Source of the DNA: Alphaproteobacteria bacterium
GTDB lineage: Bacteria; Pseudomonadota; Alphaproteobacteria; CACZRW01
Assembly: GCA_017507765.1 (NCBI GenBank)
Contig: JAFWAG010000032.1
Span: 20,919 to 84,918, forward strand
DNA length: 64,000 bases
Direction of reading: 5' to 3'
Of the stretch, positions 36,619 through 63,997 are shown in pieces. Each line of letters begins with the position of its first letter. The stretch's first letter is position 1. Made by a program: the position numbers and the translations under genes. The notes beneath the pieces are model-generated. The model made no database searches. It had not been told where the DNA came from and saw only the letters and a program-made list of their open reading frames with translations.

Positions 36619-36638
36619 CTTAGTCCCCTTTTTTCCAA

Positions 36639-38099
36639 TTACGGCTGAGCATTATTGCCTCCGCCTTTTTTCATTGCCGCCAACATGGCTAAACCAACAC
36701 CGCCTTGAGCTATCAATGCACCCGCTCTCATAAGGCGGCTCATCGCCTTACTGAATACCGCCGAGTTTGCTTTTGCTCCCGCAAACTGCGCCGCCATGCG
36801 GTTCATCGTGCCGATAAGCTTTATCAAATAAAGACCCAAGAATATCATCAAAAACATAGCTATCGGGAAGTTAAGGTTCGATTCAACAAACTTTGGATTG
36901 GCATCAATAATCTTTCCCGTCTCCATATAGCATATATCACCTACGGAACTTTTATCTCCGACCATAAGCTCATCAGATACACATTTCCAAAGGCTGTCGG
37001 ATTTATAGCCAACTACGCAAGTTTCCTTTTCTTCACCAATAGTGGTTTTATATTTTATACAGGTTCTGGGCATAACAACGCCAGAGGACGGATCCAACAT
37101 TTCATCTTGTCTGGAAACATATCCTTGTAAAACTTCCGGTTGATTCAAAATCAGCTTTTCCGGATCAAAGATATCCAGCTTCATAGTAAACTGTACCATG
37201 ATTTCTATCGCTAAGATTAGGAAGATAGCTATCATCACTATTTGCATAAACGTGGATAGGAAAATGTTCCAACCGACAATGGCGTATTGCCGCAAAAGCT
37301 TAAACGGCCAAAAGGCGATAAATATCGGCAGTAAGACAAATGCAATGCCAAGCTTGAACAAGCCGTCAACAATATAAAACGGGAAAAGAAAGTTCAAAAC
37401 ACCGAAAACAAGGAAGATGCAAATACCGAAAACTACGGCAATAAAGTCTCCGCTAGCTATCATTTTCTGGGCAAAAAAGTTACCGTACACCATGCGGGTA
37501 TGCATCTTTGCTATCAGACAGGAAAACGCATCGGATACGCCTTGCTGTAAAGCGTGGCCGCTGTCAATAACCATACTGTCAAAGGTATTGTTACAAGCAC
37601 TGTAATTAGTTCCATAACTGCCAAAACCGGAATTGATTACCGCCAGCGATAAATCAATAAATCCTTGGAAGACCGGCACAATCGTATAGCTTATCAGAGC
37701 AAAAATCGTATCTGCGCTCATCAGCAAAACGCCGCAGCATAAAACCGCAAAACTGGTTTTAAGCGAGTCGGTCCAGAACTGATTAACATCAGGCATTTTA
37801 TAGCTTAAAAACAATTTGCCGACATGGAAGAGTATCCAAATCGCAAAGCTTATCGCCATTAAAGCAAGCGCACCGTTCGCTATTTCATGATAAAAGACGA
37901 TAATCAAACTGTCCAAAGCGGCAAAAATCGTTTTGAAGATTGAGCAGCTCCAACAATGGCTCATATAGTCTTTTTCCAGTTCTTCCAAAGAAACGTCATA
38001 ATCCTTTGGGTTGCAGCCGGACAAAAGCAAGCAGGCTACTATTCCCACAAACAGGAAAAGCAGTTTAAAAAGCATCTCTTTTTTTTGTTTTTTATCCAT
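36639..38099 (-). CDS. virB6: VirB6/TrbL-like T4SS membrane protein, paralog 4 (lipoprotein-type signal peptide)
   Basis: 486 aa; LLSGC lipobox; MSHCWSCSIFKTIFAALD motif; multiple TM. Confidence 0.65.
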   Translation of the reverse strand: MDKKQKKEMLFKLLFLFVGIVACLLLSGCNPKDYDVSLEELEKDYMSHCWSCSIFKTIFAALDSLIIVFYHEIANGALALMAISFAIWILFHVGKLFLSYKMPDVNQFWTDSLKTSFAVLCCGVLLMSADTIFALISYTIVPVFQGFIDLSLAVINSGFGSYGTNYSACNNTFDSMVIDSGHALQQGVSDAFSCLIAKMHTRMVYGNFFAQKMIASGDFIAVVFGICIFLVFGVLNFLFPFYIVDGLFKLGIAFVLLPIFIAFWPFKLLRQYAIVGWNIFLSTFMQIVMIAIFLILAIEIMVQFTMKLDIFDPEKLILNQPEVLQGYVSRQDEMLDPSSGVVMPRTCIKYKTTIGEEKETCVVGYKSDSLWKCVSDELMVGDKSSVGDICYMETGKIIDANPKFVESNLNFPIAMFLMIFLGLYLIKLIGTMNRMAAQFAGAKANSAVFSKAMSRLMRAGALIAQGGVGLAMLAAMKKGGGNNAQP

Positions 38100-40581: not shown

Positions 40582-40672
40582 CGCTTTGTCCTTTTAAAAA
40601 GCCTCCTATCCTTCAAATATTATAACCTTTTTCCCGTTCCTTTAGTATGACAGTTTTTTGATTCCTATCCCT

Positions 40673-42715
40673 TTATGGAGTAACCATATCCTGCTCTCTG
40701 GCATACTTTGTGTAATCTAATCTGTCTTTAGCACTTGGAACAGCATCTCTTATTTCATTAATCTTATTAACATTCTTGGAGAATGATGCCTGTTCTTCCG
40801 GCGACAAACGATCATAATAACGTTGTTTAAGCTTCTGATATTCAAGCTTTCCTTCAAGCTTGTCCAGTCTTTCACGAGCAGCGTCTTGAGCCTCTGGTGA
40901 ATGTCTGCCGCTGGTATCGTTAATAATCATCATCTGATCCGACATTTCTTTAACCCTCTTAAAGTCGTCTTCGGCTATATTCAACAAAGAGGCGTTATGA
41001 GAATTAAACTTGCCGGTAGATTGATTATACAATACATCGTCCATTAATTTTGCTTGATAATTAGGAATATCAGGCTTAGTTCTTTCGGGTTCCGTATCAT
41101 TATGAGTATCCGGAACAACATCTTTCTTCGATGAAGACGACGATTTACTGTTCTTTACGCTTATCGCCATAATCGTTGCCGTAGCTTGCAGAGTCGTTGC
41201 CGTTACATAAGAAGCCATAGCACCGACTTTATCTCCTGCCTGCGAGCCAAACTCTACTTCCGTGTATTCACTGGCGGTTTTATCAACAACGTTCATTACC
41301 TTTACGCCAAAGAAACAGCAGGCAAAGGCAAAGAAGAACGATGAGCCGGATAAATCCATAGCGTCCCTAAGGCCTTGGATATCGTTAAGCATACACATCT
41401 GCCGCAAGTTTTCGTTTTCAAGCTCGAATGCCGTTATAAGCATAAGTATTGCCAAGGCTATGACTATCGCCAAGACAATGAAGTTCATCATAACATGAAC
41501 CAACATCTTGAAGCCTTGTTTCGCATAGTTCATAGATGACGGGAAAACCCATGCGACAATCAAAAACGGTAAAACTGAAGCTAAAATACCCAAACGAATA
41601 AGTGCGTCCAATACTTTGAAAACAAAGACAACCAAAATTATCAGACAGGTAAGCCAAATCATAATACCGGATATCAGCATAACAAAATCCGGACCGTTAA
41701 AGAAGAAATACGATGCTGCGTGCCAAGATTTACAAATAATCGCAGACGCAAACGCCATACCAAACGATACTTCTTTGTGTATCATCTCGGTCAAACACCC
41801 AAGAGCATTATAAATCTGCGTGTTAAGCATACGGCCTTCGTCCATATCCGGCTCTGCCAACGAAAGAGAACAACCGCTCATGGTCGCAAATGACGGGGCA
41901 GCAGAAAGGTTTTCGTAGGCGTCCATTTCTTCAAGCCACCTTAAAACGATACCAAACGCCGCATGGGTATTTATACCAAGAGGAAGAGTCAACGGGAAAG
42001 AAGAATAAATGTCGGCGGTAAACTGTCCGGTTTCCGATATTAAACGCCACATATTGCGCTGGTCTTTGGAAATCGCATCATAAAAAAGCGGCTTATCAAG
42101 TTCGGTTTTCCGGCTAAGCGTTTCCGTGGTTTCATCAAGTCCGGCATAGCTTTTTATAATAACTTGGTTAAACTCTACCGCTCCGACGACAATCGGCGAA
42201 ATCAACAGGTTGGATACATAGCTTATCGGCATGGTTAAAAGCGCACCGGCAAACATGGCTTTGAACAATGTCTTGCCCATTTTCGTCCAAAAGTCAGCAG
42301 GCTCTTGCGGACTGAAAGACATAAGATGTTTGCCAAGGTGATACAAAAGCCAAAGTCCAAGCAAAACCGTTAAAACCATCCGGCTTGGTCCGGCGGTAAG
42401 TTCATAAACTCCGGTACTTACCGTATCAATGGCATCAAAAATCTTTTCCACCAAAAAACAAGACCAACAGTTTGATACATGGTCGGCAACAATCTGGCTG
42501 CAAGTATCACAGTCGCCCAAAATTACTTTAACGACATTGTCATACATATCGTTAATGTTGGCGCCCATCCGGATTAAAGACAGGAACGTATCACGCAGAA
42601 TATTAACATCGGCAACTTCATCGGCGGCAAAAGAGCGCAAAGGAGCAAGAACAGAAGCAACAAACGCCGCAACTGCCGGAAGATATCTTTTAATGATGTT
42701 TTTCATTATCATCAT
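40673..42715 (-). CDS. virB6: VirB6/TrbL-like T4SS membrane protein, paralog 2, with hydrophilic C-terminal extension
   Basis: 680 aa; signal peptide; VSNCWSCFLVEKIFDAID motif; multiple TM; about 170-aa charged C-terminal tail. Confidence 0.65.
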   Translation of the reverse strand: MMIMKNIIKRYLPAVAAFVASVLAPLRSFAADEVADVNILRDTFLSLIRMGANINDMYDNVVKVILGDCDTCSQIVADHVSNCWSCFLVEKIFDAIDTVSTGVYELTAGPSRMVLTVLLGLWLLYHLGKHLMSFSPQEPADFWTKMGKTLFKAMFAGALLTMPISYVSNLLISPIVVGAVEFNQVIIKSYAGLDETTETLSRKTELDKPLFYDAISKDQRNMWRLISETGQFTADIYSSFPLTLPLGINTHAAFGIVLRWLEEMDAYENLSAAPSFATMSGCSLSLAEPDMDEGRMLNTQIYNALGCLTEMIHKEVSFGMAFASAIICKSWHAASYFFFNGPDFVMLISGIMIWLTCLIILVVFVFKVLDALIRLGILASVLPFLIVAWVFPSSMNYAKQGFKMLVHVMMNFIVLAIVIALAILMLITAFELENENLRQMCMLNDIQGLRDAMDLSGSSFFFAFACCFFGVKVMNVVDKTASEYTEVEFGSQAGDKVGAMASYVTATTLQATATIMAISVKNSKSSSSSKKDVVPDTHNDTEPERTKPDIPNYQAKLMDDVLYNQSTGKFNSHNASLLNIAEDDFKRVKEMSDQMMIINDTSGRHSPEAQDAARERLDKLEGKLEYQKLKQRYYDRLSPEEQASFSKNVNKINEIRDAVPSAKDRLDYTKYAREQDMVTP

Positions 42716-42723
42716 TTCAACCT

Positions 42724-44454
42724 TTACCCCGGATCCGAAAACAGCTTTTTACCCGTATTGGCAACCAACGAAGCACTTGACTGACCTATGGTAGCCAACG
42801 AACGACCTGCCGAAGCACCCATTTTATCGCCGACAGCATTACCAAAACCGGCACCCGCAACCGAAGAAAACTCTAAGCTGACATTGTCGACAATACCAAC
42901 AATTAAAATCGCAAAGACGAAACAAGCCAAAGCAACCAACATACTGGTACCGGAAAGATTCAAGTTCTTTGCCAGTTCTTCTATGTGGTTTAAGTAAAAC
43001 AGCGTGCGGATATCGTTAACTCCCGCCTGACCGGCATCGCCTTGGAATGCCATCATAACCAGTAAAATTGCCAACGCTAAGATAATGGCCAAGATGATAA
43101 ACATCATCACGATATGAACCAGCGATTTAAATCCTTGGCGTGCATAGCAAGATGTTGACGGGAATACCCAACAAATGATTAACAACGGCAGTAAAACACA
43201 TAAAATGCCAAGCCGCAAACAAGCGTCCAAAACCTTAAACGTGAAAATAAGCAGTAATAAGAAACTGGCGAGCCAGATTAAAGCTCCGGCGATGAAAGTT
43301 GGAATATCCGGATAGGAAATTACCGCATAGTGGTTAGCACCCTTGGCATAACAAACTATACACGAACCGACGGATATACCGAAGCTAAGCTCCTCTTGCA
43401 TATTTTTTACCATGCACATCAAAGCGGCTTTGATTTCCGGATTCAAGGCGCCGTACAAGGTTGCTTTATCTCCGCTTTCTTGAGCTGCGGCCATGGCGGC
43501 TTCGGCATCTTCGGCAACGTTATCCGTACAGTTGGTAAGAGAAGCAACATCTCTGCCGCCGCTTAAACGTCCCAAAGTTATAGATTTGTACATCTCGTCA
43601 AGCTGCCTATCCGCATCAACGCTTATCGCAACGCCGCCGGCAACAATAACAGCTCCGAAAGTAACAAAAACCGGATTTGCGGTTACGCTGCCGCCAAGCA
43701 TTGAAGCTCCGCCGACGGTACTGACGTAATCGGCGGCCTTGGAAATAGCGGCGATTTCCTCTTTGCGAGTTTCCATTTGCTCTTCCGTCCAGCGTTCGCC
43801 GGTCTTGCCGTCAACCAAATAGCTTTTGCCATACTCTGCCGACAAAGCCGCCTGCCCTCCGCTTTCATTGGCAAAACTGCGCACAACTACCGTAGAAAAC
43901 TCACTGGCGCCGACAATTATCGGCGATATAACAACTCCGGTAAAATGGCCTATGTTCAAGCTTAAAAACGCAAATGCAACTATCGCCTTTAAAAAGGTTC
44001 TTGCCATTTTTGTCCAAAACTCTTCCGGATCTTGGGGGACAAAGGCGCTGATGTGTCCTGCTATATGATACAAAATCCAAAACGCAAGCAAAAGCGCAAG
44101 CAAAGCCATAAAACCAGTTTTGGAAGCTTCAAAAACTGCGTAAGAAAGCTCATTTATCGCATCAAAAATGATGCTGAACATACGGCATGACCAACAATCT
44201 AAAAGATTGTCCGATAATACTTTGGCAGAATTGGGACAGGGGCCGGCAAAAAAGTTTAAAAAAGATTTGACCGCATCGTTAATGCTGCCTCCGGTCGCAT
44301 CGACAACGCCGTCAATAAAGCCCGCCGCCATTTGACCAAGGCTTTCCAAAAACGTCATGTCATCGCTTTGGGCGCGAGCCGTCCCCGGCATCAGCAAAAC
44401 AAGCAGTGCAAACAGTAATCCGGGGAAGCCGGCTATAATCTTAAACTTTGTCAT
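42724..44454 (-). CDS. virB6: VirB6/TrbL-like T4SS membrane protein, paralog 1
   Basis: 576 aa; signal peptide MTKFKIIAGFPGLLFALLVLLMPGTARA; LLDCWSCRMFSIIFDAIN motif; multiple TM. Confidence 0.65.
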   Translation of the reverse strand: MTKFKIIAGFPGLLFALLVLLMPGTARAQSDDMTFLESLGQMAAGFIDGVVDATGGSINDAVKSFLNFFAGPCPNSAKVLSDNLLDCWSCRMFSIIFDAINELSYAVFEASKTGFMALLALLLAFWILYHIAGHISAFVPQDPEEFWTKMARTFLKAIVAFAFLSLNIGHFTGVVISPIIVGASEFSTVVVRSFANESGGQAALSAEYGKSYLVDGKTGERWTEEQMETRKEEIAAISKAADYVSTVGGASMLGGSVTANPVFVTFGAVIVAGGVAISVDADRQLDEMYKSITLGRLSGGRDVASLTNCTDNVAEDAEAAMAAAQESGDKATLYGALNPEIKAALMCMVKNMQEELSFGISVGSCIVCYAKGANHYAVISYPDIPTFIAGALIWLASFLLLLIFTFKVLDACLRLGILCVLLPLLIICWVFPSTSCYARQGFKSLVHIVMMFIILAIILALAILLVMMAFQGDAGQAGVNDIRTLFYLNHIEELAKNLNLSGTSMLVALACFVFAILIVGIVDNVSLEFSSVAGAGFGNAVGDKMGASAGRSLATIGQSSASLVANTGKKLFSDPG

Positions 44455-44622: not shown

Positions 44623-45327
44623 ATGGAGCAGATTATGCAAAATCCCGAAGATTTAGCCGACTACAGACAAAATACCATTTTTTTGTATATGACATTATAC
44701 AACATTGCCCAAAGACGCTGTAAAGAAGCCGGCATACCCTTCCCTTCCATTTCTTTATCTTTGGAGGATTTAAGAAACGTAGACCCTCTGAATTGGGACG
44801 ATATGCAGGGGGTTATGGATAATGCAAAAGAAATAATCCGATATTTAAAGGAAACAGGTCTTGGTCCGAAGTCATCGCCGGAAGAAAGAGAAGCTCTTAT
44901 CGAAGAAAACTTTGATGCCGATAATCCGGAAGGTGCTTTTTTACGGGAAATTATGGCAAGAAGTAGAAACTTTAAGACTTTTGCGGAAAAGCTTTCTTTG
45001 GTGGATACCTTCCTTCTGATTGAAGAGTCCAAAAACGAATTAGCCGCTATTGAAGAAACCAGAAAAGAAGTGATAGCTAAAGTGGCAAAAGAAATCGAAA
45101 AAGCCGGCTTCCCCGTTGATGGGCAAAAATTAATCACTAACTATATGAAAGCATACGAAAAAGATAAAAAGGAAGCTTTTAAAATCTTAACCACGAATCC
45201 GGCTATGTTTGCTCCTTTGCAAATGGATAAGGCAAAAAAAGGACTGTTCGGCGGAAAGCCAAAACCGGAAGAAGGGCATCGTATAAACAAAGAATTAGGA
45301 AGATTTTTAAAGCACCTAAAGATATAA
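44623..45327 (+). CDS. Hypothetical cytoplasmic protein (helical, Lys/Glu-rich; basic C-terminus)
   Basis: 234-aa ORF with good coding composition; no TM or signal peptide; ends GRFLKHLKI. Confidence 0.45.
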   Translation: MEQIMQNPEDLADYRQNTIFLYMTLYNIAQRRCKEAGIPFPSISLSLEDLRNVDPLNWDDMQGVMDNAKEIIRYLKETGLGPKSSPEEREALIEENFDADNPEGAFLREIMARSRNFKTFAEKLSLVDTFLLIEESKNELAAIEETRKEVIAKVAKEIEKAGFPVDGQKLITNYMKAYEKDKKEAFKILTTNPAMFAPLQMDKAKKGLFGGKPKPEEGHRINKELGRFLKHLKI

Positions 45328-45464
45328 AAGTACTTGATTTTTATATCTTTTTGCGCAACTCCAAAAAGTTTTCACAAAATATTAACAAAAAAATTAAAGA
45401 CAGAGGCATTCCTTTGTGATATGGTTGTATCATAACTTTTAAAGGGCTTTTAGGAGGTCTTAAA

Positions 45465-46394
45465 ATGAGCGAAGAAGAAAAGCTTGAGATTGATGAAACA
45501 ACTTCCGGTACTGGAGACGATGTAACCGGTGATACCGATACTACTGGAGCGGATACAGATACAGCTCCGGCAGAACCGGAAAATGATATGCCTTCACCGG
45601 AAGCAGAAAAGGTTGTTTACGGAGACGGTAGCGAAGGAGAACGTGAACGCGCCGAGCCGGAAACCGAGTCTGGAGATGAGACGGGAACAGAGCCGGAAGC
45701 GGAAAGAGAAAAAAATGTTCATGGTTCCGGAGAGCAAGAGGAAGGACGAGAGAAAAACGTCCATGGTGCCGAGCAGTCCGAAGAACGGGTCGGTGAACTT
45801 CACGACGAAGTTAATGATGATGAAAACGAATGGGCATATGAAAATGCGCAACAATACTTCGGTGATTTATTGCCTCGTCCGAATATTCCGAAATCTTCGA
45901 CAGCGGAAGATTTTGCCATTGATTTATTTGTAGAACTCGTCGCTGATTGGCCGAACAACTGTGTTGCGATATTAAGAGCAAATGCCTATAAAGAGCGGGT
46001 CGAAAAATTACGTTCCAGAGAAAACGGCATTCGGGAAAACTTGGCCAAGGGAATTAAAACCCAAATAAGTGCTTTGGAAGCCAACAACCAAGAATTGTTT
46101 ATAAAGACCGGTGCCGATATGTTGGCAAAAATGGAGTCTTTCTCGGCCGAAGAAAAGAGAACCTTTAAAAAGGGAATGCAGTCAATTGCTTATAATTTGC
46201 AGGAAATGGAGACTTTAAACCGCAATGATCCTCGTTATCTTTCTTTACAAAAGTCAAATAACGAATGGATGAAATATCTTGAACAGCGTACAGCAGGAAA
46301 ATCTGCTGTTGAAGTTTCCAAAAGAAGCCAGAAAGAGGCTCTGGACTTTATGCAGCAAACTTTCAATGCAAACAAACAAAATAACCGCGCTTAG
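45465..46394 (+). CDS. Hypothetical protein with strongly acidic, Thr/Gly/Glu-rich disordered N-terminal third
   Basis: 309-aa ORF; N-terminal TSGTGDDVTGDTDTTGADTDT...EREKNVHG repeats; helical C-terminal domain. Confidence 0.45.
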   Translation: MSEEEKLEIDETTSGTGDDVTGDTDTTGADTDTAPAEPENDMPSPEAEKVVYGDGSEGERERAEPETESGDETGTEPEAEREKNVHGSGEQEEGREKNVHGAEQSEERVGELHDEVNDDENEWAYENAQQYFGDLLPRPNIPKSSTAEDFAIDLFVELVADWPNNCVAILRANAYKERVEKLRSRENGIRENLAKGIKTQISALEANNQELFIKTGADMLAKMESFSAEEKRTFKKGMQSIAYNLQEMETLNRNDPRYLSLQKSNNEWMKYLEQRTAGKSAVEVSKRSQKEALDFMQQTFNANKQNNRA

Positions 46395-53078: not shown

Positions 53079-54056
53079 TCAGGTAACTTCGGTAACTGCT
53101 CTTATATTACCTTCGCGGTTTATTTGTACAACCCTTAACTTTTCATGCATTTCCTTGATGGTTTTGGCTCGGTCAATGGTCGGATAACTATGCAAAATAC
53201 GGTCTGTAAAGGCTTTGTAGGCTGCTTCGGAGTTTTCTGCATGAATGGTCGCAAAACAGTTTTCATGGCCGGAACCCATAAGCTCCCATAAAGCACCCGC
53301 ATTTGCCGTGGAAATCTCTCCGCCGATAATTGCGTCCGGCGTAAAACGAACAACCAAGTCAATAATCTTCGGATAGGTTAAATTGTTGGTTTGCTCCGTT
53401 CGGGATAAAACCAAGTGAACTCGGTTTAAATGAGGGACTATCAATTCGCGCGTATCTTCAATCGTAACAATACGCTTACTGGGTTCCAAGATTTTTAAAA
53501 GATTGTTCAAAAACGTTGTTTTACCGGTTGCCGTTGCACCGCTGACCAAAATATGGTCGCCACGTTTTATCGAAAACATAAGACGTTCAAACGGGTCTTC
53601 CGGTTCCGCCATATGCGCCAACGGATTTAATTGATGAAGCTTTTCACCTTTGCGAAGACCGTAATCGCCAAAGCCAAACTTTACATCTTCGGTATGAACA
53701 CGCACACACATTGCAACACCGCCGGTCAAATCTTCATTGTCATACATGACATTACGACCGGCAATTGCCGAAAAACGGTGGTCTCCGGGAAGGGTAGCAT
53801 AAACTACCGGCGTTCCTCTGTCCGGATCAAAGGGAAGTTCATACGTATTCGCAATAATATGAATAATATCATTTAAATATGTACGGGAAAGGTTTGCATC
53901 TTGCTGACAAACCCAAGGAATAGCTCTGCGGCCACGCAAACGGAGCCAGATTTCCCCCGGGCGGTTAACCGATATTTCTTCCACATTATCTTGGCTGTAC
54001 CAATAGGAAAGATAACGCAAAGTAGATTCAAGAACTTTAAAATTAGAATCCGTCAT
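53079..54056 (-). CDS. virB11: Type IV secretion ATPase VirB11
   Basis: 325 aa; Walker A ILVSGATATGKTTFLNNLL; Asp/His boxes; typical VirB11 length; 39 bp downstream of virB10. Confidence 0.9.
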   Translation of the reverse strand: MTDSNFKVLESTLRYLSYWYSQDNVEEISVNRPGEIWLRLRGRRAIPWVCQQDANLSRTYLNDIIHIIANTYELPFDPDRGTPVVYATLPGDHRFSAIAGRNVMYDNEDLTGGVAMCVRVHTEDVKFGFGDYGLRKGEKLHQLNPLAHMAEPEDPFERLMFSIKRGDHILVSGATATGKTTFLNNLLKILEPSKRIVTIEDTRELIVPHLNRVHLVLSRTEQTNNLTYPKIIDLVVRFTPDAIIGGEISTANAGALWELMGSGHENCFATIHAENSEAAYKAFTDRILHSYPTIDRAKTIKEMHEKLRVVQINREGNIRAVTEVT

Positions 54057-54095: not shown

Positions 54096-57000
54096 TCAGA
54101 AAAGCCGAGGTACAGGATTCCCCGCAGAAGAAGGACTACGCTGACCTTCCGGCAAGGGAGGAGGTTCATAAACCGGCACACTGCTCTGTTTCGGCTGACT
54201 GGGAGCTATCAACGGAACTTCGTTAGGATTCTTCCGTTTAGCCAAAGAACCGGAACCTGCTCCACCGGCTACCGTTGCGGCGTTACCGGGCTGATAAACC
54301 GTCGTGGTTTTAACCTGAGAGCTGCTGCCTGCCAAAGGACGCTCCGGCTTCTTATCCGCAATCAACGGACGCTCCTCTTTGATTATATCATCATCAATAG
54401 AGTTAGCAGCATCCGGAGAACGTATCCACAAATCCTGATTAGCAAATGCCGTAAGCTTGGTTCCCGAAGGTATGGTAACCACGGTCATAATATCCGAGTA
54501 ATCTTTCAACATCTGCTGAATAATGGAGCTTGATGTATCCGTCCAGCTATCACGAGCATCTTCATACGCTTCCTGACGGTCGGACTTCGCAGACTCTCCG
54601 CCATAGGCTCCCGGTACAGGCTTGCTGCTAGAAGCCATAGCAATTGTAATGGCATCGGCGGCAATTTCACTGACCAGAGGCGTGAAGTATTTATCAAACA
54701 AGCGACGGTCAAGATATCCCGGAATGCCTCCACGGCCTTGGGCGTCTCCGCTTATACCTTCAAAGACAAAGGCAATGCCGTCAGGACGAATCAAGCGTTC
54801 CCAAGTAATATCAACCTTGGATACAAAGCCGCCACCTTGCGAATCTCCGCCAGAGACTCCAATCAAACGGCTACCCGCAGGAATGACTATGTTTCTTCCG
54901 TCTTCGGCATAGATATTTCTTTCCACAATCGCCGTAACCGGAGTATCCGTAAAGCGGGAATCAATCGTGTTAACCAAGACTGCCGGTATAGCTTTGCCTT
55001 TGACAATCAAACGATTCATCTTCACAGGAAGACTGGAAACCGATTTCTTAATACCTAAGCTTGACCAATCTTCATCTTCCGTGTTGTTTTTAAAGTTCGG
55101 TGCCTTGAAATGTCCCCATTCAACATTAGCTCTGCGGTCTTGCTGTAAAGCCATAATTCTTCTGACCCGAGAGCTGTCATACCGTTCTCCGGGGCCAAAT
55201 CCGCCGCCTTTACCAAGGTTCTTATTACCGTAGTCGCCGAAAGCTCCTAGATTATCAAATACCGGCGGAGTTTTCGAAGCGTCTCCGGCAATCGAAGAAG
55301 CCATAGATTGCTGCGACGGAAGACGAGAAATGCTTCCTTCGTTACGAGCAAACGACCGTATCTTTTCGGCAATGACGTCTTTAACCGAAGCAACAACTTC
55401 GCCAAGAGTATTCAAAAGCTCGCCGTCTTCATTGAGACTGCCGACAACAACGCCGTCCATATCGACAACATCTCCGTTTTCGTCAAGCCAACCGATATTA
55501 TTTCCTTCGGTATCAACCAAGAAATCTTTTTCCGAAACGGTACCGATATGACGGCCTCTGGCATCAACAATGGAACCATCAGCCATGACTCTGCCGTCAA
55601 TTACGTTGCCTTTTAAATCAACCAATTCGCCGTCTTCGTTAACAAAGCCAACAACTTTGCCGTCTTTGTTCACAATCGCTCGACGAGTGTCTGTATAGCC
55701 GATGACCTTACCGGAACTATCGGTTAAGACCCTGCTCTTGGGTGCGACACCTATTCTTTTGCCCTGTAAGTCAACTACGGTACCGTCTTCGACAACTCGC
55801 CCAACAATCTTTCCGACTTTGTCACGAACCATGCCGTCAGCACCGACTGTACCCATAAGAACGCCGTTTTTGTTGTATGCTTTCTTGCCGCCGAAGCCAC
55901 CCAAAGCTTGTTCCACAGTGGAAACAACTCCGATAGTCTCTCCTTTAGCATTAACAACAACGCCGCTTTCCAAACAATTACCGATGACACGTCCGGTCGC
56001 ATCACGGACAGTTCCGTCTTCCCAGATAATACCGCTAAAGTTTCCGGTTTTGCCGATAACCGGCTGACCGACAAGACGCATAGCCTTTTTAGGCTGGAAT
56101 GCTGTAGTTGAGGCAACGCCAATTTTCTTACCAAGCATATCTCTTACTACACCGCTGATTTCAGCTCTGCCAACGATTTTATCGCCGGAAGCACGGACTA
56201 ATCCGTCTTTACCAATCGTGCCGACTGCAAGCCCGCTAGAAGCTAAGACCCGACGGCCGACAAGTTCGTTGCGAATATCAAGATTAGAGTTGGGAACAAA
56301 ACCAAGCAATTTGCCGGAAGTGTCTTTTGCGATGCTCTGCGCATCAACCGAACCGATAACTGCACCGTCCGAAAGAATCATACCGTCTTCGTCTATGGTA
56401 CCGATTACTTTTCCTTCCCGACCGTAAACTTTCAAGGCAAGCATCTTAGAAACTGCCTTGGCAGGAACAAAGGCTATAGGACGACCTTGGGAATCTTTGA
56501 CGATTGCCCGACTGTTAACTGTGCCTAAAGCCGTACCCGTCTTGGTAATCAAATTACCTGTATCATTTATGGTACCGACCGCTAAACCGGTAGAACCGTA
56601 TGCGGTAAGTCCGCTGTACGGATTTTTCATAACCGCAGGAACGAAACCAATAATTGTACCTTCGGCATTATGAGCAATACCTTTGCCATCTACGGTACCC
56701 AACGGAGCATCAGAACTATCCCTAACAACACCTTCGGCATCAACTTTACCTAAGACTGCTCCTCTGGCATTGACAACGGATTTATCAATGTAGGAACTGC
56801 TTACCTTCATGGAAACGTATCCTAATACTTCTCCCATAGTGTTGCGGAACAAGCCATGTTCATCAACCAGACCTACGGTATTACGCTCTCCGTCCAAAAT
56901 CTTGCCCGTTGTATCCGGAATACCGATTAAGTTACCTTCGCTGTCATAAACCGTGCTAGCATCTTTTGAGCGAACAAAGCCAATTACTTCACCGGAGAAG

Positions 57001-60000
57001 CTTCTGGCAATGCCATAGTTTTCAATCGTTCCTATCTCGTTACCGTTTAAGCCAAGAACCATTCCGTTTTGACCGACACGACCGATAACTTTTCCGTCAG
57101 CTGCCTGAACTTCCTCCAAATCCGAGAAGGCGCTTTTTACTGCTTCGGGGATAAAGCCGACTATCTTACCGGACGAATTAACGACAACTGCCTTATCGTT
57201 AGCTTTGCCGTAAATAACTCCTTTGGAATCACGAACATCGCCAGCGTTATCAACTACTCCCATTAAAAGCCCAGAAGCATCATACGCTTTATCGCCGGCA
57301 AAACCGTTGACCTTAACCGCCGGAACAAAACCGGTAATGTTTCCGTTTGCTTCAAGCATAAAGCCGAACTTGTTCAAAACGCCTAAAAGCTTGGCATTAG
57401 CATTCAATACCTGACCGTCTGCATTGGCTGTTCCTATCGGGTCTCCGTTCGGATTGTATACCGTCATGCCAAAGAAAGCATTCTTGGTGTCAGCCGGAAT
57501 AAAGCCAATAATACGATTAGAGCTATCTTTGGCTATGCCTAAAGCGTCTATCTCTCCGATTGTGCGACCGGAAGTGTCAGTTACTTTACCATACGGAGAA
57601 ACAATGCCGACAACCATTCCCGTCGAACCTAAGACTAACCTGCCGGAAAATACTGATAATTCACCTTCTGCGGCTTCGTTTGAAGAAACTCTGCCGATAT
57701 CACGACCGTCATTGCCTCGGATTGAACCGTCCGGCATACGCTCGCCAATAATCATATTTCCGCCGCCACGAACTTTCAAATCAGGAACTACACGTCCCAG
57801 AACTTTACCGTCTACACCGACAACACGTCTGTCGTTCAAAGTTCTGCCTATGACATTGTTGCGATTGTCGATAACCGTACCGTCGGCAAGAACTCTTCCC
57901 AAATGGTTGCCGTTTTCATCAATCAGCATTCCACGGGTTAAAACTTTCCCAAGAACATTGCCATTGGCATCAACAACATCTCCGGATATGGTCAAGCAAT
58001 CCATAATCTTGCCGTCAGCTCCGACAACATTACCGTTTACCAAAACTCTGCCAAGGAAACGGCCGTCCAAACCAATTACCGAAGAAGCATACTTTACCAA
58101 AGAACCGATATTATTGCCGTCACTGCCGGTAACTTTGCCGTCAGCTCCGATACAACCAAGATAAGAACCGTTTTTGTTAATAACGTTAGCTCCCAAACCG
58201 GTGTAACCGATAACTTGACAAGCTCCACGAATTACCGTGCCTTTATAAGAAGCAATTACCGCAATCAAACGATTATCATCGTCAATTACCGACCCGTCGG
58301 TAGCAATCCGTCCTATGGTGCGACCGTTATCATCGCTTACGGTAGCGGACGGTTCTGCCAAACCAATCTGTTCACAGTTCGGAGTTACCGCAGGACCGTA
58401 GGCAACTATACCGCCAATGATAGAGCCGCTTCGGTCAATAATTGAACCGTCATCGGTAATCATGCCAAGCTGGGCGCCTTCTGCATCAATAACCGTACCG
58501 TCAAAAGACTGGAAGCCTTTTGATTGATATCCGGCAAAAATCGGCATACCCATACGCATACTCATACCGACATATGGGACTAAGCTTTTACTGTTGCTGT
58601 TTCCTCCGATAGCCGTGCCATCCGGAAGAACTCGACCGGATAATCCGTTTTCTCCCAATAAAGAGCCGTTTGGATTGATAACACCAACAAACTGACCTCT
58701 ATCATTAACCGCAGTTTTTCCCGTTAAAATACCGCCAATAACTCTGCCTGCCGAATCAATAGCAAAACCGGAAGGAAGGATAGTGGCAAACTGCCGTCCC
58801 TGAACATCGACAACATCGCCGGAAACAGTTAACCAACCGGCAAAAGTTCCGTCTTCGGTAAATACATTATAAGAAGAAACCGTTGAACCGATAACGTGTT
58901 TGCGGGCGTTAATAACCATACCATAAGGAAGCGCCTTACCAATTACGGTTCCGGTTGTATCAATTACGGAGCCGTCAATGTCTATCCACCCCAAAGGCTT
59001 AGCTTCGGCGCTGAAAGCAATACCGGTGGGAACCGTACCTGCGGTAACGGAACCACGTTCCAAAACATCTCCGACGGCGGAAAGGCTGCCAAAAGCACGC
59101 ACCCCGTCCCAAGCCGAACCGTCAGGCATAGCAAAACCGGCTAAGCTTCCGTCATAACGGATTAAAGCTCCTTCCGGAATTACCGCACCGGCAGGGATTT
59201 TATTACGGTTTAAAACAACACCGTTTGCCGAAACGCTTCCTAAGGCAACTTTGTCTGTCAGGCTTTCAACCAAAGCGTCGGGGCGAACTATACCCATAAT
59301 ACCGCCTTTGGACGACATCGCTAAAGTTCCAAGCTCCCAAACTTTACCGATAATATCCTTACCTTGGGAGTTAACTACGGTAGCGTCAGCCAAAACTTTA
59401 CCGATAACCTTGCCGTTTGGTCCCATGGCTATACCGTTGTCCGCCGTATAGCCGATAACGTCTCCACGATTACCGATAACCATTCCTTCGGGAACAATCC
59501 GACCTATAGCTATTCCGGCAGAAGAAACCACAATCCCTGATGCACGAACCGTTCCAATAATTTTGCCGGTTTCATCGGTAACTTTACCTGCCGGACCTAC
59601 TTTACCGGCTTGTTTGCCGTCAAAGCTTACAAATAAGCCTGTGGGCATAATCCGACCGACATAGGCACCTTTTTCATTCATAACCGAACCGTCAGGCATA
59701 ATCCTGCCGATATTGTTATTACGATTATCGACTACATCTCCGTTCGGCAAGGCGTTACCGATAACTTCACCGCTACGGCCGATAACACTTCCAAGCCGAA
59801 CAGCTTTGCCCAAAACTTTACCGTCATTGGAAATAATGAACAATGCAGGAGTCATGCGACCAATCTGGGCGCCGGTACGGTCGTAAACCGCACCTTTACT
59901 ATCAATACGACCTAACATACGGCCGGAAACACCCAAAGCAACAACCCGAGACGGAACAACTTTACCGACAATATTACCTTTGGTATCAATAACCATTCCG

Positions 60001-62591
60001 GTAGAAATTGCTCTGCCTATGATTGTTCCGGAATTATTTCTTACGATTGTACCGTCGGAACTTAAACGACCTATATTATTACCGGCATAATCAATAACTT
60101 CGGCTCCTGTGGACATATTGCCGTTTGCCCAACCGATAACGTTTCCAGAGTTATCAACAACCGTACCGTCAGAAGAAACTTTACCAATTACTTTACCGGA
60201 AGCATCAACCACGGAAGAGTCCGCCATAACTCTGCCAATAACATTTCCAGATTTATCAACAACCCGTCCGAATACTTTTTCGCCAGAGCTGCCGATAACA
60301 TTTCCTTCTTTGTCAACAACCGTACCGTCAGGAGCAGCTTTACCAATTACCTTACCGGAAGCATCAACTACGGAAGAGTCCGGCATAACCCAACCGACAA
60401 CTTTTCCGGCTTTATCAACAACGGGATTGAATACCTTTTTATTCGACCAACCAATGATATTTCCTGCGGTATCAACAACCGTGCCGTCCGGAACTGCTTT
60501 ACCGATTACCGTACCGGAAACGTCAACTACGGAAGCGTCCGGCATAACCCAACCAACAACCTTACCGACCGCATCAACAACCGTGCCGAAAGGAACGTTT
60601 GAGCCGATAATCTTATTATTCGCATCGTATAAGATGCCACCGGCACCAAGACAGCCTATGTAATCACCTTTGCGGTTATATATCTTACCGTCCAAACGAG
60701 TCTGGCCAAGGACTTCACCCTGTTGGTTAATAACCGAACCACCATGGCGGACATAACCGGATTCAAGCGTGCTTCCTTTGCGTTTAATCAAACCATCAGG
60801 ATAAACTTTTGCCGAATCATCACCAAGAATGGTTCCGGAGACATCAATAGCCCCCAGAATGCCGCAACCTTTTGTCAAAGCAATATCCGAAGAAATTACT
60901 TTACCAAGATTTCCGCCTTCGGCATTGATGATATTGCCGTTGGGCATAACATTGCCAAGAACGTTACCGTCTTCGGAAACAACCATAAAATTAGGAGCGA
61001 CATAGCCAATAGTTCCGCCTTCGGTACCGATAGGCAGACCTTTGGAGGGTATTTTACCGATTACTTCAGCGTTATCGTTTACAACACTGCCGTCCGGCAT
61101 TGCGCAACCCAAAGCATTGGAAGCAGCGTCAAAAGCTTTACCTTCGGAATTGATGTAACCGGCGATTTTACCTTCTTTATTCATGAACAAGCCGTCACGA
61201 ATTACGCCACCGATAACACTGCCCGTAAGGTTCGTAACAACACCGTCAATATCAACCGAACCGATTTGACGGCGGCCTTTATCAATTACCAAGCCGTCCG
61301 GCATAACCATACCAAGGAACTTACAACCGGAGCCAACAGCTACACCCGAAGGAAGAAGTTTGGCAACAACTTGATTTTCTGCGGATACAGCAACTCCAGA
61401 GGGAAGAATGCGCCCAACAACACCTTTTCTGCCTTTTACTTCGGCATTAGGCATAACAATTCCGGCAACGACATCTTCGGCATTTACGGCAACTCCGCGA
61501 GGAGCCAAATAACCGATTGTGGTTCCGTCCAAACCAACTACTCTGGTATCGCCCAACACCGTACCGATAATATCGCCGTTTTTGCCAAGTACCGTAGCGT
61601 CAAGACCTACGGTTCCAAGGAATATACCGCTTTTATCAACTACCGGTCCTAACTCTATGGCTCCACCGATAACATTCAATTTGGCATCAACAATAGTTCC
61701 GTCCCCCAAAGTCCGACCGACAACAGTTCCGTTGTCGTCCAAAACTATTGAATCCTTCATTATCCTACCAAGGATTTTACCGTCCAAAGAAACCGGTATT
61801 TTATCTGGTTGAACAATACTGATAACAGCTCCGGTTTCATCAAGTACGGCGCCGTTTTCTCCCATTTTGCCAAGGACGTTGCCGTTTTCATCAACGACAT
61901 TGCCGGCTTCGTTCAAATAACCAAGAACTTTGCCGTCAAAGCCCATAACCAGACGGCCTTTTTGAATAATTGTATCTCCGGAAGGTCCGGCTTCACAAAC
62001 TCCACACAAGCTTGTATCAGTTGCGACACCGGCAACGGTAACAATAAGTTTGCGGGTAACATTAAGCCCGCCCTCTTCCGTCCAACGAACGGCAAGATTG
62101 TTCTGTAAGCTACGTCCCATAACCGGTTTCCAGAAAACCCGAATGTTACAGGTTGCATCTGCGGACAAAACCTGATTGGGTTCGCACTTACTTTCATACG
62201 AAAAACCGTCTTGCTGCGGTTCTTCCAAATCAACGGAAACAATCCGGATTTTTCCTCCGGTCGCAATCAAGGTGATTACAGATTCCGCTTTGGTACCCAA
62301 AACCACCGGATCCAAAACCAAGGCTTCCGGTTTGGCTTCAAGCTTTGCACTGCCTTCAGCCGGAGCCGTCGGCAAAGCTATCGGAGCGTTGTTTCCGGTG
62401 TTTAAAGCGGCAAATGGATCAACCGTAGCCGTCAAATCAGGGTCTGTGTCCTCCACTCCCCGTCCCCCTAAGTCAATAAGGGAAAGAAGCCCGATAAGAA
62501 AAGCCAAAGCCATAACCAAACCAACAATCAAAACGATGCGGTTGGTTTTCTTTAAATAACGATCCGATGCGCTTAAAAGTTCTTTTTTCAT
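54096..62591 (-). CDS. virB10: Giant VirB10: N-terminal TM anchor + about 2,150-aa array of 17-residue repeats + canonical TrbI/VirB10 C-terminal domain + Pro-rich tail
   Basis: Uninterrupted 8,496-nt ORF (2,831 aa); TM IVLIVGLVMALAFLIGLLSLI; C-terminal region RLIVKGKAIPAVLVNTIDSRF...IVIPAGSRLIGVSGG...KVDITWERLIRPDGIAFVFEGISGDAQGRGGIPGYLDRRLF...TVVTIPSGTKLTAFANQDLWI aligns with the A. tumefaciens VirB10 barrel; start ATG overlaps the virB9 stop (ATGA). Confidence 0.8.
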   Translation of the reverse strand: MKKELLSASDRYLKKTNRIVLIVGLVMALAFLIGLLSLIDLGGRGVEDTDPDLTATVDPFAALNTGNNAPIALPTAPAEGSAKLEAKPEALVLDPVVLGTKAESVITLIATGGKIRIVSVDLEEPQQDGFSYESKCEPNQVLSADATCNIRVFWKPVMGRSLQNNLAVRWTEEGGLNVTRKLIVTVAGVATDTSLCGVCEAGPSGDTIIQKGRLVMGFDGKVLGYLNEAGNVVDENGNVLGKMGENGAVLDETGAVISIVQPDKIPVSLDGKILGRIMKDSIVLDDNGTVVGRTLGDGTIVDAKLNVIGGAIELGPVVDKSGIFLGTVGLDATVLGKNGDIIGTVLGDTRVVGLDGTTIGYLAPRGVAVNAEDVVAGIVMPNAEVKGRKGVVGRILPSGVAVSAENQVVAKLLPSGVAVGSGCKFLGMVMPDGLVIDKGRRQIGSVDIDGVVTNLTGSVIGGVIRDGLFMNKEGKIAGYINSEGKAFDAASNALGCAMPDGSVVNDNAEVIGKIPSKGLPIGTEGGTIGYVAPNFMVVSEDGNVLGNVMPNGNIINAEGGNLGKVISSDIALTKGCGILGAIDVSGTILGDDSAKVYPDGLIKRKGSTLESGYVRHGGSVINQQGEVLGQTRLDGKIYNRKGDYIGCLGAGGILYDANNKIIGSNVPFGTVVDAVGKVVGWVMPDASVVDVSGTVIGKAVPDGTVVDTAGNIIGWSNKKVFNPVVDKAGKVVGWVMPDSSVVDASGKVIGKAAPDGTVVDKEGNVIGSSGEKVFGRVVDKSGNVIGRVMADSSVVDASGKVIGKVSSDGTVVDNSGNVIGWANGNMSTGAEVIDYAGNNIGRLSSDGTIVRNNSGTIIGRAISTGMVIDTKGNIVGKVVPSRVVALGVSGRMLGRIDSKGAVYDRTGAQIGRMTPALFIISNDGKVLGKAVRLGSVIGRSGEVIGNALPNGDVVDNRNNNIGRIMPDGSVMNEKGAYVGRIMPTGLFVSFDGKQAGKVGPAGKVTDETGKIIGTVRASGIVVSSAGIAIGRIVPEGMVIGNRGDVIGYTADNGIAMGPNGKVIGKVLADATVVNSQGKDIIGKVWELGTLAMSSKGGIMGIVRPDALVESLTDKVALGSVSANGVVLNRNKIPAGAVIPEGALIRYDGSLAGFAMPDGSAWDGVRAFGSLSAVGDVLERGSVTAGTVPTGIAFSAEAKPLGWIDIDGSVIDTTGTVIGKALPYGMVINARKHVIGSTVSSYNVFTEDGTFAGWLTVSGDVVDVQGRQFATILPSGFAIDSAGRVIGGILTGKTAVNDRGQFVGVINPNGSLLGENGLSGRVLPDGTAIGGNSNSKSLVPYVGMSMRMGMPIFAGYQSKGFQSFDGTVIDAEGAQLGMITDDGSIIDRSGSIIGGIVAYGPAVTPNCEQIGLAEPSATVSDDNGRTIGRIATDGSVIDDDNRLIAVIASYKGTVIRGACQVIGYTGLGANVINKNGSYLGCIGADGKVTGSDGNNIGSLVKYASSVIGLDGRFLGRVLVNGNVVGADGKIMDCLTISGDVVDANGNVLGKVLTRGMLIDENGNHLGRVLADGTVIDNRNNVIGRTLNDRRVVGVDGKVLGRVVPDLKVRGGGNMIIGERMPDGSIRGNDGRDIGRVSSNEAAEGELSVFSGRLVLGSTGMVVGIVSPYGKVTDTSGRTIGEIDALGIAKDSSNRIIGFIPADTKNAFFGMTVYNPNGDPIGTANADGQVLNANAKLLGVLNKFGFMLEANGNITGFVPAVKVNGFAGDKAYDASGLLMGVVDNAGDVRDSKGVIYGKANDKAVVVNSSGKIVGFIPEAVKSAFSDLEEVQAADGKVIGRVGQNGMVLGLNGNEIGTIENYGIARSFSGEVIGFVRSKDASTVYDSEGNLIGIPDTTGKILDGERNTVGLVDEHGLFRNTMGEVLGYVSMKVSSSYIDKSVVNARGAVLGKVDAEGVVRDSSDAPLGTVDGKGIAHNAEGTIIGFVPAVMKNPYSGLTAYGSTGLAVGTINDTGNLITKTGTALGTVNSRAIVKDSQGRPIAFVPAKAVSKMLALKVYGREGKVIGTIDEDGMILSDGAVIGSVDAQSIAKDTSGKLLGFVPNSNLDIRNELVGRRVLASSGLAVGTIGKDGLVRASGDKIVGRAEISGVVRDMLGKKIGVASTTAFQPKKAMRLVGQPVIGKTGNFSGIIWEDGTVRDATGRVIGNCLESGVVVNAKGETIGVVSTVEQALGGFGGKKAYNKNGVLMGTVGADGMVRDKVGKIVGRVVEDGTVVDLQGKRIGVAPKSRVLTDSSGKVIGYTDTRRAIVNKDGKVVGFVNEDGELVDLKGNVIDGRVMADGSIVDARGRHIGTVSEKDFLVDTEGNNIGWLDENGDVVDMDGVVVGSLNEDGELLNTLGEVVASVKDVIAEKIRSFARNEGSISRLPSQQSMASSIAGDASKTPPVFDNLGAFGDYGNKNLGKGGGFGPGERYDSSRVRRIMALQQDRRANVEWGHFKAPNFKNNTEDEDWSSLGIKKSVSSLPVKMNRLIVKGKAIPAVLVNTIDSRFTDTPVTAIVERNIYAEDGRNIVIPAGSRLIGVSGGDSQGGGFVSKVDITWERLIRPDGIAFVFEGISGDAQGRGGIPGYLDRRLFDKYFTPLVSEIAADAITIAMASSSKPVPGAYGGESAKSDRQEAYEDARDSWTDTSSSIIQQMLKDYSDIMTVVTIPSGTKLTAFANQDLWIRSPDAANSIDDDIIKEERPLIADKKPERPLAGSSSQVKTTTVYQPGNAATVAGGAGSGSLAKRKNPNEVPLIAPSQPKQSSVPVYEPPPLPEGQRSPSSAGNPVPRLF
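55540..62020. repeat. About 6.5-kb in-frame array of >120 degenerate 51-bp units encoding [VI]VDxxGxVIGxVxxDG[ST]-type 17-aa repeats inside virB10
   Basis: Protein-level periodicity, e.g. VVDKAGKVVGWVMPDSS/VVDASGKVIGKAAPDGT/VVDKSGNVIGRVMADSS/VVDASGKVIGKVSSDGT; DNA copies are divergent (not recent slippage). Confidence 0.7.
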
Positions 62592-63997
62592 TGCGTCCGC
62601 ACAACAATACAGTTAAGACCACGGCGACTTAATTGCCCACAAATCTTATCGCCAACTTTAATATCACTGATGGGCCCGACCCGAAGACGGAATAAATCCT
62701 GTTCCCCGCTTTCTGCCGAAGTATCAACCGAGAAATACGGCTGATAACTGCCGATTAAGTCTCGATTACGGCGAGAAATGGTATTCCAAGAATCTTCCAA
62801 CTTAGAAATCTCTTTATCCGAACCAAGTTCTATGGCTATTTTTTCCTGTCCGGCAGGTGCGGCGGCAAAATATCCAAGACGCTGACCGTCTTTGGCCATA
62901 GAGGAAAGAGTGCTGCGAATGTCGGCTTTAGCACGGCTGTCCGCTACTCCCGTCGGAAGGGGACGCATACCGGCAGGTACGCTGTTAACACTGCCAGACT
63001 TGCCGTTGTTGCCAAGCCAAGCGGAAAAACTTTCTTCAATTACCATGTCTTCCGGCATTGCTTGTCCCGCAGCTTGCTTTGCGGCGGCATTCTGTGAACC
63101 GGGCATCTTTGTGGCATTAGGTCCGATAGGTGCTTGAACGTCCCAATGCTTTTCATTATAGGTGCTGTAATCTATGTAATCCAAGCCAAAAGCAGGATCT
63201 TTGCGCAGTTTAAGACATACTATTTTTTGTCCGTTTCTTAAAACCATGTCTCCGACTGCTTCAACAATAATTAAACGGCCGTTAGGACCGCGGGTACGAA
63301 AGCCAACTGGAACTTCACTATCCTGCACTATCAGATTGACAATCGGCCGCTCTAACATCGCCAAGGCTTTGGGGCCAAAATCTATGTAAGTAAAAATCTC
63401 ATCGTGCCAGACTCTTTCCGGCGCAATGTCAATATCGTTCGGGTTAGGAAGATATACTTCTATATCGAAGCGAAACTTCTCGGGATTCGTAGGAATCCCC
63501 TCCAACCAGTTCTTAGGTGCATTACTTGCTACGTTTAAAGCCGCCGAGGGATTCAGCGAATTACCCGGAATGGCGGGGTTCATTCCGCTGCCGCGCATAC
63601 CGCTTACCCAACCGGGGGTGTTACTGCTGACACCGCCGGTAACTCCGCTGCCGGAAGGAGCATTCGGAACAATAACATCAACAACTGCGTTGGTTATTCT
63701 GTCCGTATTGTATCCTTCGCTGCGAAGATAGAAGGCATAACGATTGCCGGAACGACCGAAAACGATAAGGTTGGAATCAACGCCAATCATACCCGGCTGC
63801 GTAAACAGCAATAACGAATTAGGAGAAGGAAACTCTCCGACAAAGGAAGAAGTATCGCCTATCCAAATGGAATCAATTACTTCCCAAGCAGGAAAATTGA
63901 TAAGCGTTGCCATGCTTTCCCGCAAACGAACCGGAAGAACTTTTTCCGGAGCCCAGCTGTAACGGGAATATCCCGGACTGGTTTGACCTTCGCCCAT
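62588..63997 (-). CDS. virB9: VirB9 (TrbG/CagX family) with a Gly/Ser/Asn/Pro-rich insertion between the N- and C-terminal domains; 5' end may lie beyond the window
   Basis: 469 aa or more; N-domain LFTQPGMIGVDSNLIVFGRSGNRYAFYLRSEGYN; C-domain HDEIFTYIDFGPKALAMLERPIVNLIVQDSEVPVGFRTRGPNGRLIIVEAVGDMVLRNGQKIVCLK matches the VirB9 C-terminal motif (dDG.fTYf.F....lP.vf.v..dG.E.lvN.r..g..lvV......l.LR.G); stop overlaps the virB10 start. Confidence 0.7.
   Translation of the reverse strand: MGEGQTSPGYSRYSWAPEKVLPVRLRESMATLINFPAWEVIDSIWIGDTSSFVGEFPSPNSLLLFTQPGMIGVDSNLIVFGRSGNRYAFYLRSEGYNTDRITNAVVDVIVPNAPSGSGVTGGVSSNTPGWVSGMRGSGMNPAIPGNSLNPSAALNVASNAPKNWLEGIPTNPEKFRFDIEVYLPNPNDIDIAPERVWHDEIFTYIDFGPKALAMLERPIVNLIVQDSEVPVGFRTRGPNGRLIIVEAVGDMVLRNGQKIVCLKLRKDPAFGLDYIDYSTYNEKHWDVQAPIGPNATKMPGSQNAAAKQAAGQAMPEDMVIEESFSAWLGNNGKSGSVNSVPAGMRPLPTGVADSRAKADIRSTLSSMAKDGQRLGYFAAAPAGQEKIAIELGSDKEISKLEDSWNTISRRNRDLIGSYQPYFSVDTSAESGEQDLFRLRVGPISDIKVGDKICGQLSRRGLNCIVVRTQ

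Follow-up and report, generated by a model that had tools for sequence, protein, structure and literature searches.

The giant VirB10 gene described here raises two questions: to which family the long repeat in its middle belongs, and what role such a repeat could play in a type IV secretion system. The gene lies in a stretch of 64,000 nucleotides (hereafter the window) from Alphaproteobacteria bacterium assembly GCA_017507765.1, contig JAFWAG010000032.1, positions 20,919 to 84,918. It occupies 54096..62591 of the window on the minus strand and, according to the open reading frame (ORF) list and the translation, encodes 2831 amino acids plus a stop codon; the Pfam families TrbI, Bflower_2, Bflower and DUF3659 are all found in its product. 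An earlier sequence-only reading had taken the repeat for a novel family of unknown fold. We find that by its sequence it is a member of the beta-flower/DUF3659 group and already catalogued: the family is in Pfam as DUF3659 and, since 2023, also as beta-flower, and is itself no discovery. What is new is that the units are orthologous one by one, that they follow a three-unit super-period and that pairs of cysteines have been gained and lost together. The giant VirB10 family appears to be undescribed in the literature searched, where neither beta-flower, DUF3659 and the Pfam accessions nor VirB10 in combination with gut Alphaproteobacteria led to a paper on it, and it is a more interesting object than the repeat.

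The 17-residue repeat is real, and its periodicity held under formal analysis. Over aa 210-2400 the autocorrelation of residue classes has maxima at lags 17, 34, 51 and 68 (z = 27, 16, 11 and 8.5). Units were called with a position-specific scoring matrix and dynamic programming, which recognized 107 non-overlapping ungapped 17-mers in aa 217-2393, versus 0-7 in 20 shuffles; hmmsearch with a 17-residue hidden Markov model under-called adjacent units (69-93 domains). The consensus of the called units, D-a-s-G-k-V-I-G-r-V-x-P-D-G-s-V-V, agrees with the pattern proposed from the letters alone ((hydrophobic)2-D-x-x-G and so on). Spacing between units is exactly 17 in 77 of 106 cases and mostly 18, 19, 21 or 24 in the remainder, so the occasional longer units that had been said to break the register are real. 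The array, as delimited by periodicity, unit calling, Pfam and AlphaFold2, covers aa 217-2393 (55413..61943, minus strand) rather than the 55540..62020 first proposed. It holds roughly 110-125 beta-hairpin units. The earlier count of more than 120 copies is a fair upper estimate, since length (2177 aa / 17) or predicted strands (72 in 655 aa) give ~120-128 hairpins, but only 107 are cleanly recognizable. Nor does the array lack Cys, Pro and aromatics, as had been claimed: it has 61 Pro (2.8%), 91 Phe/Tyr/Trp (4.2%) and 9 Cys, and Pro is the commonest residue (28%) at unit position 12.

Profile search places the array in three existing Pfam families, far above their curated cut-offs: PF21785 Bflower_2 (1.3e-123; 405.4 bits against a cut-off of 38; 23 stretches), PF21784 Bflower (3.2e-39; 134.3 bits against 25) and PF12396 DUF3659 (2.2e-18; 66.3 bits against 24.8; 8 stretches). 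The proposal of a novel family is thereby overturned. The sequence-only reading had named two things that together would count against it, a profile match to a known family and an established function of that family; the first was found, and because the matched families have no established function the refutation on those terms is partial. At NCBI the homologues are named either ‘DUF3659 domain-containing protein’ or ‘TrbI/VirB10 family protein’. A profile built from nine 5-unit segments of this protein and run against 1.84 billion cluster representatives gave 1327 matches at E<=0.001 (319 at 1e-10; 100 at 1e-30). All ten of the matches sampled contained Bflower_2, nine of them well above the cut-off and one 100-aa protein (P0208) just above it. 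With so few matches, and the sampled ones all Bflower_2, the repeat is rare yet fully covered by an existing family.

Durairaj et al. (Nature 2023) defined the two Bflower families and described their fold from AlphaFold models (PMC10584680). A beta-flower is a shallow barrel of hairpin ‘petals’ in 4-, 5- or 6-fold symmetry, whose tips carry a semiconserved [DNEQ]xxG; the fold is mostly bacterial, without a PDB relative and without known function, and some members carry cell-wall-binding or MORN-variant annotation (PMC10584680). Our array has this tip. Unit positions 1-4, with D in 42% and N in 18% of units at position 1 and G in 79% at position 4, sit in the loop that joins the two modelled strands. 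It thus resembles the beta-flowers (PF21785, 5-fold; PF21784, 4-fold; clan CL0395) and DUF3659 in both the ~17-19-residue hairpin unit and the [DNEQ]xxG tip. In other respects it differs. The beta-flowers described so far are small single domains with 8, 10 or 12 strands (the type example has ~96 residues) that often, but not obligatorily, enclose a C-terminal hydrophobic helix or bear a lipoprotein signal, whereas here more than 100 hairpins run on continuously without a helix, with a three-unit super-period, Cys pairs four units apart and a fusion to VirB10. No helix of four or more residues occurs in the 655 residues modelled (see below), and at the N-terminus there is a membrane anchor in place of a lipobox.

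The statement that the repeat fits none of the common classes was borne out for RTX, pentapeptide, hexapeptide and MORN repeats, none of which matched in the Pfam and NCBIfam scans. Three candidates were rejected individually. For an RTX or calcium-binding beta-roll there is no Pfam or NCBIfam match at E<=1, and the period is 17 rather than 9. RHS/YD repeats, choline-binding repeats and clostridial toxin CROPs share with the array hairpin units of ~20 residues and D/N-x-x-G-like turns. The RHS/YD model PF05593 gives no match at E<=1, and TIGR01643 reaches 18 bits over a single 17-residue stretch, with none passing alone; relatives such as P0120 exceed the Pfam RHS_repeat cut-off, but the window protein does not. 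The choline-binding/CROP hairpin solenoid was rejected because CW_binding gives no match at E<=1 and the structural similarity found by Foldseek is non-significant and local only.

Models were made with AlphaFold2. For aa 396-659, with an alignment of 21 orthologous segments, the predicted local distance difference test score (pLDDT) is 89 and the predicted template modelling score (pTM) 0.77. Only beta-structure is predicted: each unit contributes two strands, 28 in all and 3-6 residues long, and the D-x-x-G and P-D-G motifs occupy the two turns. The stacked short beta-strands with tight Gly turns that had been suggested from the letters agree with this prediction. The longer segment aa 396-1050 (655 residues) was modelled with pLDDT 74, pTM 0.56 and 72 strands, as confident blocks of 12-16 hairpins separated by low-confidence joints at ~aa 606-677 and 756-773. 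Foldseek against solved structures returned nothing at E<0.001; the best match, an Rhs protein, had E = 1.0e-03, and all TM-scores were below 0.2. The top names in this non-significant list were Rhs, Tc toxins, TcdA/TcdB repeats and choline-binding proteins.

The protein around the array is laid out as a VirB10. At its N-terminus (aa 1-41; 62469..62591, minus strand) the sequence has a cytoplasmic stretch and a single membrane-spanning helix (hydrophobic run ~aa 18-38); 80+ homologues keep the motif ‘SSSEQYxKKSNRxLL’ and the hydrophobic stretch after it. Then comes a non-repeat periplasmic domain (aa ~85-205; 61977..62339, minus strand), delimited by alignment A1, in which four Cys (C136, C148, C196 and C199) as well as W154 and W170 are invariant. 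The Pfam scan of the window protein matched nothing in this domain, and the relative P0120 has a weak ASH (PF15780)/Ig-like match at its position; by sequence the domain is probably Ig-like. The array is joined to the VirB10 domain by a linker of ~120 aa (aa 2394-2515; 55047..55412, minus strand) in which zero repeat units were called. The TrbI/VirB10 domain itself (aa 2516-2727; 54411..55046, minus strand) matches PF03743 over profile positions 2-187 of 188 (2.7e-28; 99.6 bits against a cut-off of 35), and among PDB sequences it matches ComB10 (2bhv, 2.8e-18), VirB10 (6gyb) and TrwE (7o3j). A Pro/Ser-rich tail seen in the sequence (aa 2728-2831; 54099..54410, minus strand) ends the protein. 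The TrbI domain, the N-terminal anchor and the virB9-virB10-virB11 gene order are all shared with canonical VirB10/TrbI/ComB10/TrwE proteins (2bhv, 6gyb, 7o3j). The scores miss the NCBIfam equivalog cut-offs (T4SS_VirB10, 87.4 against 220; T4SS_ComB10, 107.1 against 300), so the protein is a divergent member of the VirB10 superfamily and not an equivalog. An ordinary VirB10 has ~380-450 aa and a short proline-rich periplasmic linker; the window protein has ~2200 extra residues.

This architecture is not peculiar to the window. In a collection of 5.8 billion proteins it is common to 84; 81 of them combine Bflower and/or DUF3659 with TrbI in 2100-2430 aa, and the remaining three are shorter (1598-1823 aa). 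Scanning one genome per species with alignment A1 as query, we found a relative encoded in 316 genomes; a scan of the genome collection with the single protein as query gave no match. The best 80 of the 316 are all metagenome-assembled genomes (MAGs) of uncultured gut, rumen or faecal Alphaproteobacteria, among them ‘Acetobacter sp. CAG:977’ and CAG/UMGS/RGIG bins. From names of this kind we presume that the relatives belong to GTDB order RF32. Their contigs reach up to 732 kb, and nothing in the analysis spoke for the reduced genome assumed in the sequence-only reading. The window species is in neither the protein nor the genome collection, and its best relative is ~31% identical over the array. 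Shorter TrbI fusions also occur, at ~800 aa and at ~1400-1470 aa.

In 33 of the 80 loci fetched the giant VirB10 is encoded by two adjacent genes (L011, L013, L020, L023, L024, L027, L029, L030, L034, L039, L041 and L045 among them), with a combined length of up to ~3500 aa (L039, L082); in L020 the two genes lie at 5983-9408 and 9412-15078. Gene A carries the membrane anchor, the N-terminal domain and a hairpin array, and has a conserved C-terminus, ‘GYxLQEVAKNRRN’. In gene B an initial Sec-type signal peptide leads straight into hairpins, and the TrbI domain comes last. Fused forms hold a total length of 2100-2700 aa.

Across the family the units are orthologous one-to-one: in alignments of 24 and of 124 relatives, features peculiar to single units stay in register at ~30% identity. 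Conservation across the family, with unit-by-unit orthology in alignments A1 and A2 and in the 124-sequence alignment, covers aa 217 to ~1600 of the array of the window protein (57792..61943, minus strand). Within the unit, conservation is highest at G8 (0.90), followed by G4 and G14 (0.73) and V16 (0.64), and the most variable positions are the turn tips 2, 3 and 5 (entropy 2.5-2.8 bits). There is an order above the single hairpin. Units three, six, nine and twelve apart have mean similarity scores across the family of 11.6, 12.3, 15.1 and 14.6, compared with 7.5-10.7 for the remaining offsets up to 10; pLDDT oscillates with a period of ~50 residues in both AlphaFold2 models; and the youngest duplications are three-unit modules. 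On this basis we assign the array a three-unit (51-aa) super-period.

The conserved cysteines follow a rule of their own. They are paired 73 aa apart, from position 4 of unit i to position 9 of unit i+4. The putative disulfide pair C423-C496 (61104..61325, minus strand; codons 61104-61106 and 61323-61325, checked) falls in alignment columns 954/1060, where 115 of 124 sequences have both Cys, nine have neither and none has only the first or only the second. At C576-C647 (60651..60866, minus strand; columns 1168/1248) both Cys are present in 124/124 sequences, 73 aa apart in 115. Further along, C1406-C1480 and C1458-C1532 form two interleaved putative pairs, each 74 aa apart (57996..58376, minus strand), recognized by their Cys contexts. 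The second of these (columns 2872/3033) is complete in 99 sequences, absent from 25 and single in none; the pairing of C1406 with C1480 is presumed, from spacing and context only. Two other pairs give 106/0/0/18 and 22/0/0/102 for both/only first/only second/neither, while a non-partner pair taken for comparison gives 100/15/6/3. Pooled mutual information likewise has its strongest inter-unit coupling between position 4 of one unit and position 9 of the unit four further on, and all couplings other than this Cys pair are indistinguishable from phylogenetic background. Pairs interleave twice, units 8-12 with 11-15 and C1406-C1480 with C1458-C1532. Such interleaving is hard to square with separate closed five-petal domains and fits staples between triplets in a continuous stack. 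Together with the triplet period it suggests, as far as sequence can tell, a packing other than closed 4-, 5- or 6-petal barrels. Eight of the nine array Cys have a partner 71-74 aa away; Cys2206 (‘IGNC’; 55974..55976, minus strand), in the window-specific expansion, has none.

That expansion lies within aa 1641-2260 (55812..57671, minus strand), as defined by comparison with 23 relatives, by autocorrelation at lags 58 and 116 and by row display. It consists of a ~58-aa module repeated about ten times, each module comprising three hairpins and an insert of 7-8 aa (a ‘GFVPA...’ linker). The window protein is ~580 aa longer than its relatives; ~530 of these residues, within aa 1604-2246, are missing from the 23. 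The ten-module block accounts for most of the excess. At the DNA level repeat copies are only 62-79% identical. The youngest duplication, located by repeat-family search and Tandem Repeats Finder, comprises three 159-nt copies, each coding for 53 aa (2 aa more than three hairpins), with 67-79% identity (60133..60609, minus strand); Tandem Repeats Finder reports a single array, 159 nt x 2.9 at 60129-60590. Long antisense ORFs (184-309 aa) occur on the plus strand within the array at 57424..58164, 60109..60663 and 60723..61652. They are most likely by-products of repetitive Gly/Val/Asp codon usage and not genes. Plus-strand GC skew is strongly negative across the array (-0.15 to -0.21).

Taking these observations together, the array is probably a rigid structural scaffold in the periplasm that replaces the proline-rich linker of VirB10. 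VirB10 is the subunit that would bridge inner and outer membranes in this type IV secretion system, and the array would fill its periplasmic middle. Each unit is predicted to form one hairpin: a strand, the D/N-x-x-G turn, a second strand ending in the near-invariant Gly, and the x-P-D-G turn, with Val/Ile positions alternating as they would in a beta-strand core. The hairpins probably stack as three-hairpin units into stiff blocks, the 12-16-hairpin blocks of the model being predicted to be rigid, with weaker joints where the register breaks. The Cys pairs may act as disulfide staples linking neighbouring triplets, which would require an oxidizing, periplasmic location. We place the array in the periplasm because the Cys pairs co-vary perfectly and because split gene B starts with a Sec-type signal peptide. 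One-to-one unit orthology, conserved Gly and core positions with variable tips, and a maintained size argue for a structural module under purifying selection, which would be neither a variable antigen nor a cation-binding motif. Structures from R388 and Xanthomonas have ~14 VirB10 per machine. With as many copies the arrays would make up a very large stiff collar or scaffold, placed between the anchor in the inner membrane and the core complex of the outer membrane.

A different role is suggested by CagY of Helicobacter pylori, likewise a VirB10 of a chromosomal type IV secretion system that is enlarged several-fold by repeats before its C-terminal VirB10 domain. The H. pylori literature describes CagY as unlike other VirB10 orthologues in its large repeat region (PMC5954226), and this one described case has its repeats at the same location in the protein (PMC5954226, PMC2194252). 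By analogy the array would be a surface-exposed, host-facing module for interaction and variation, binding a ligand and tuning secretion through repeat changes as the CagY middle repeats do. The variable hairpin-tip positions 2, 3 and 5 are what such a module should show, as are the ten-module expansion confined to one lineage and an array only ~30% identical between species where VirB11 is 83% identical (window copy against that of the closest relative, L075). We nevertheless think this unlikely. CagY has 5′ and middle repeat regions, unrelated in sequence to this array; its function switches when their near-identical DNA repeats undergo in-frame recombination (PMC5954226, PMC2194252). The copies in our gene are ancient and have diverged at the DNA level, the sole tandem DNA repeat being the 3 x 159 nt duplication. 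Frequent recombination in frame would thus find nothing to act on, and a CagY-type recombination cassette was rejected. Unit orthology is kept one-to-one across >120 species, and the conserved putative disulfide pairs fit a structural scaffold better. The array also lies between the inner-membrane anchor and the outer-membrane-inserted domain, from which position surface exposure would, given VirB10 topology, need two extra membrane crossings.

Anchoring of the secretion machine in the sacculus by a peptidoglycan-binding array seems quite improbable to us, although the adjacent VirB9 does have a peptidoglycan-binding SPOR domain, some relatives of the repeat are annotated accordingly and hairpin repeats of choline-binding proteins and clostridial toxins are among the weak Foldseek matches. 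No Pfam cell-wall-binding model and no fold matches, the unit consensus has no conserved aromatic or charged ligand-site pattern, and more than 100 units per chain would go far beyond the needs of anchoring. The original picture, in which the repeats form a new family and bind cations through fixed Asp residues in the manner of a beta-roll, can hardly be sustained. It drew on the two Asp-rich positions in each unit and on a fold without a solved structure; the strong matches to three existing Pfam families have removed the novelty, and no RTX or other calcium-binding model matches. The Asp are not fixed either: only 42% of units have D at position 1 and only 36% at position 13, and N, G or S substitute freely. 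Because these positions lie in the two predicted turns, we read them as the turn-forming D/N-x-x-G and D/N-G motifs and not as metal ligands.

Several points weigh against a rigid periplasmic scaffold as well. No member of the Pfam clan has an experiment, a solved structure or a known function behind it. Fully extended, the array would exceed an ordinary periplasm several-fold, and the split-gene forms mean that a continuous polypeptide from inner to outer membrane is not obligatory. The gap between ~30% identity in the array and 83% in VirB11 would also fit an exposed surface facing a host or a partner. Shared ancestry inflates the Cys co-occurrence counts, although zero singletons in four pairs is still telling. 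A bolder version of the scaffold, tentative and on present evidence doubtful, is a new higher-order form of the fold, in which ~40 three-hairpin (six-stranded, 51-aa) mini-barrels are locked by disulfides into rods and 14 rods make up a megadalton periplasmic cage, which could also be assembled from two polypeptides in species with split genes. If true, the rod cage would be a type IV secretion architecture absent from all solved systems, and a giant VirB10 with repeats would have been invented twice independently, here and in CagY.

The family matters apart from that outcome. A whole gut/rumen alphaproteobacterial lineage has a VirB10 of 2100-2800 aa, or ~3500 aa as two genes, with a repeat unrelated to that of CagY. 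For the beta-flower fold this is the largest natural array, and its triplet period and co-varying Cys pairs are testable structural constraints. It also raises the question of what form a secretion machine with >3 MDa of extra periplasmic beta-structure takes, and what cargo it secretes.

The neighbouring genes are those of a type IV secretion cluster. Upstream of the giant virB10, at 62588..63997 (minus strand), is a VirB9/CagX-like protein with a C-terminal SPOR domain (Pfam CagX, 3.7e-16; SPOR, 7.8e-05); such a domain is unusual for a VirB9. Downstream, at 53079..54056 (minus strand), is a VirB11-type ATPase (Pfam T2SSE, 8.6e-21). In related loci virB9 is directly upstream in 78 of 79 and virB11 directly downstream in 82 of 84, and the chromosomal cluster order is virB8-(small)-virB8-virB9-virB10-virB11. 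The Pfam scan of the window also found three VirB6/TrbL-like paralogues at 38119..44454. Beside them, at 25916..38099 on the minus strand, are six large ORFs (627, 412, 301, 1061, 568 and 486 aa) with no Pfam match at E<=0.001, which may encode secretion substrates or additional, divergent paralogues of VirB6. Two ORFs of 234 and 309 aa without a Pfam match lie at 44623..46394 (plus strand), with the VirB6 cluster on one side and housekeeping genes on the other; the longer of them has a very acidic N-terminus rich in Glu, Asp and Thr.

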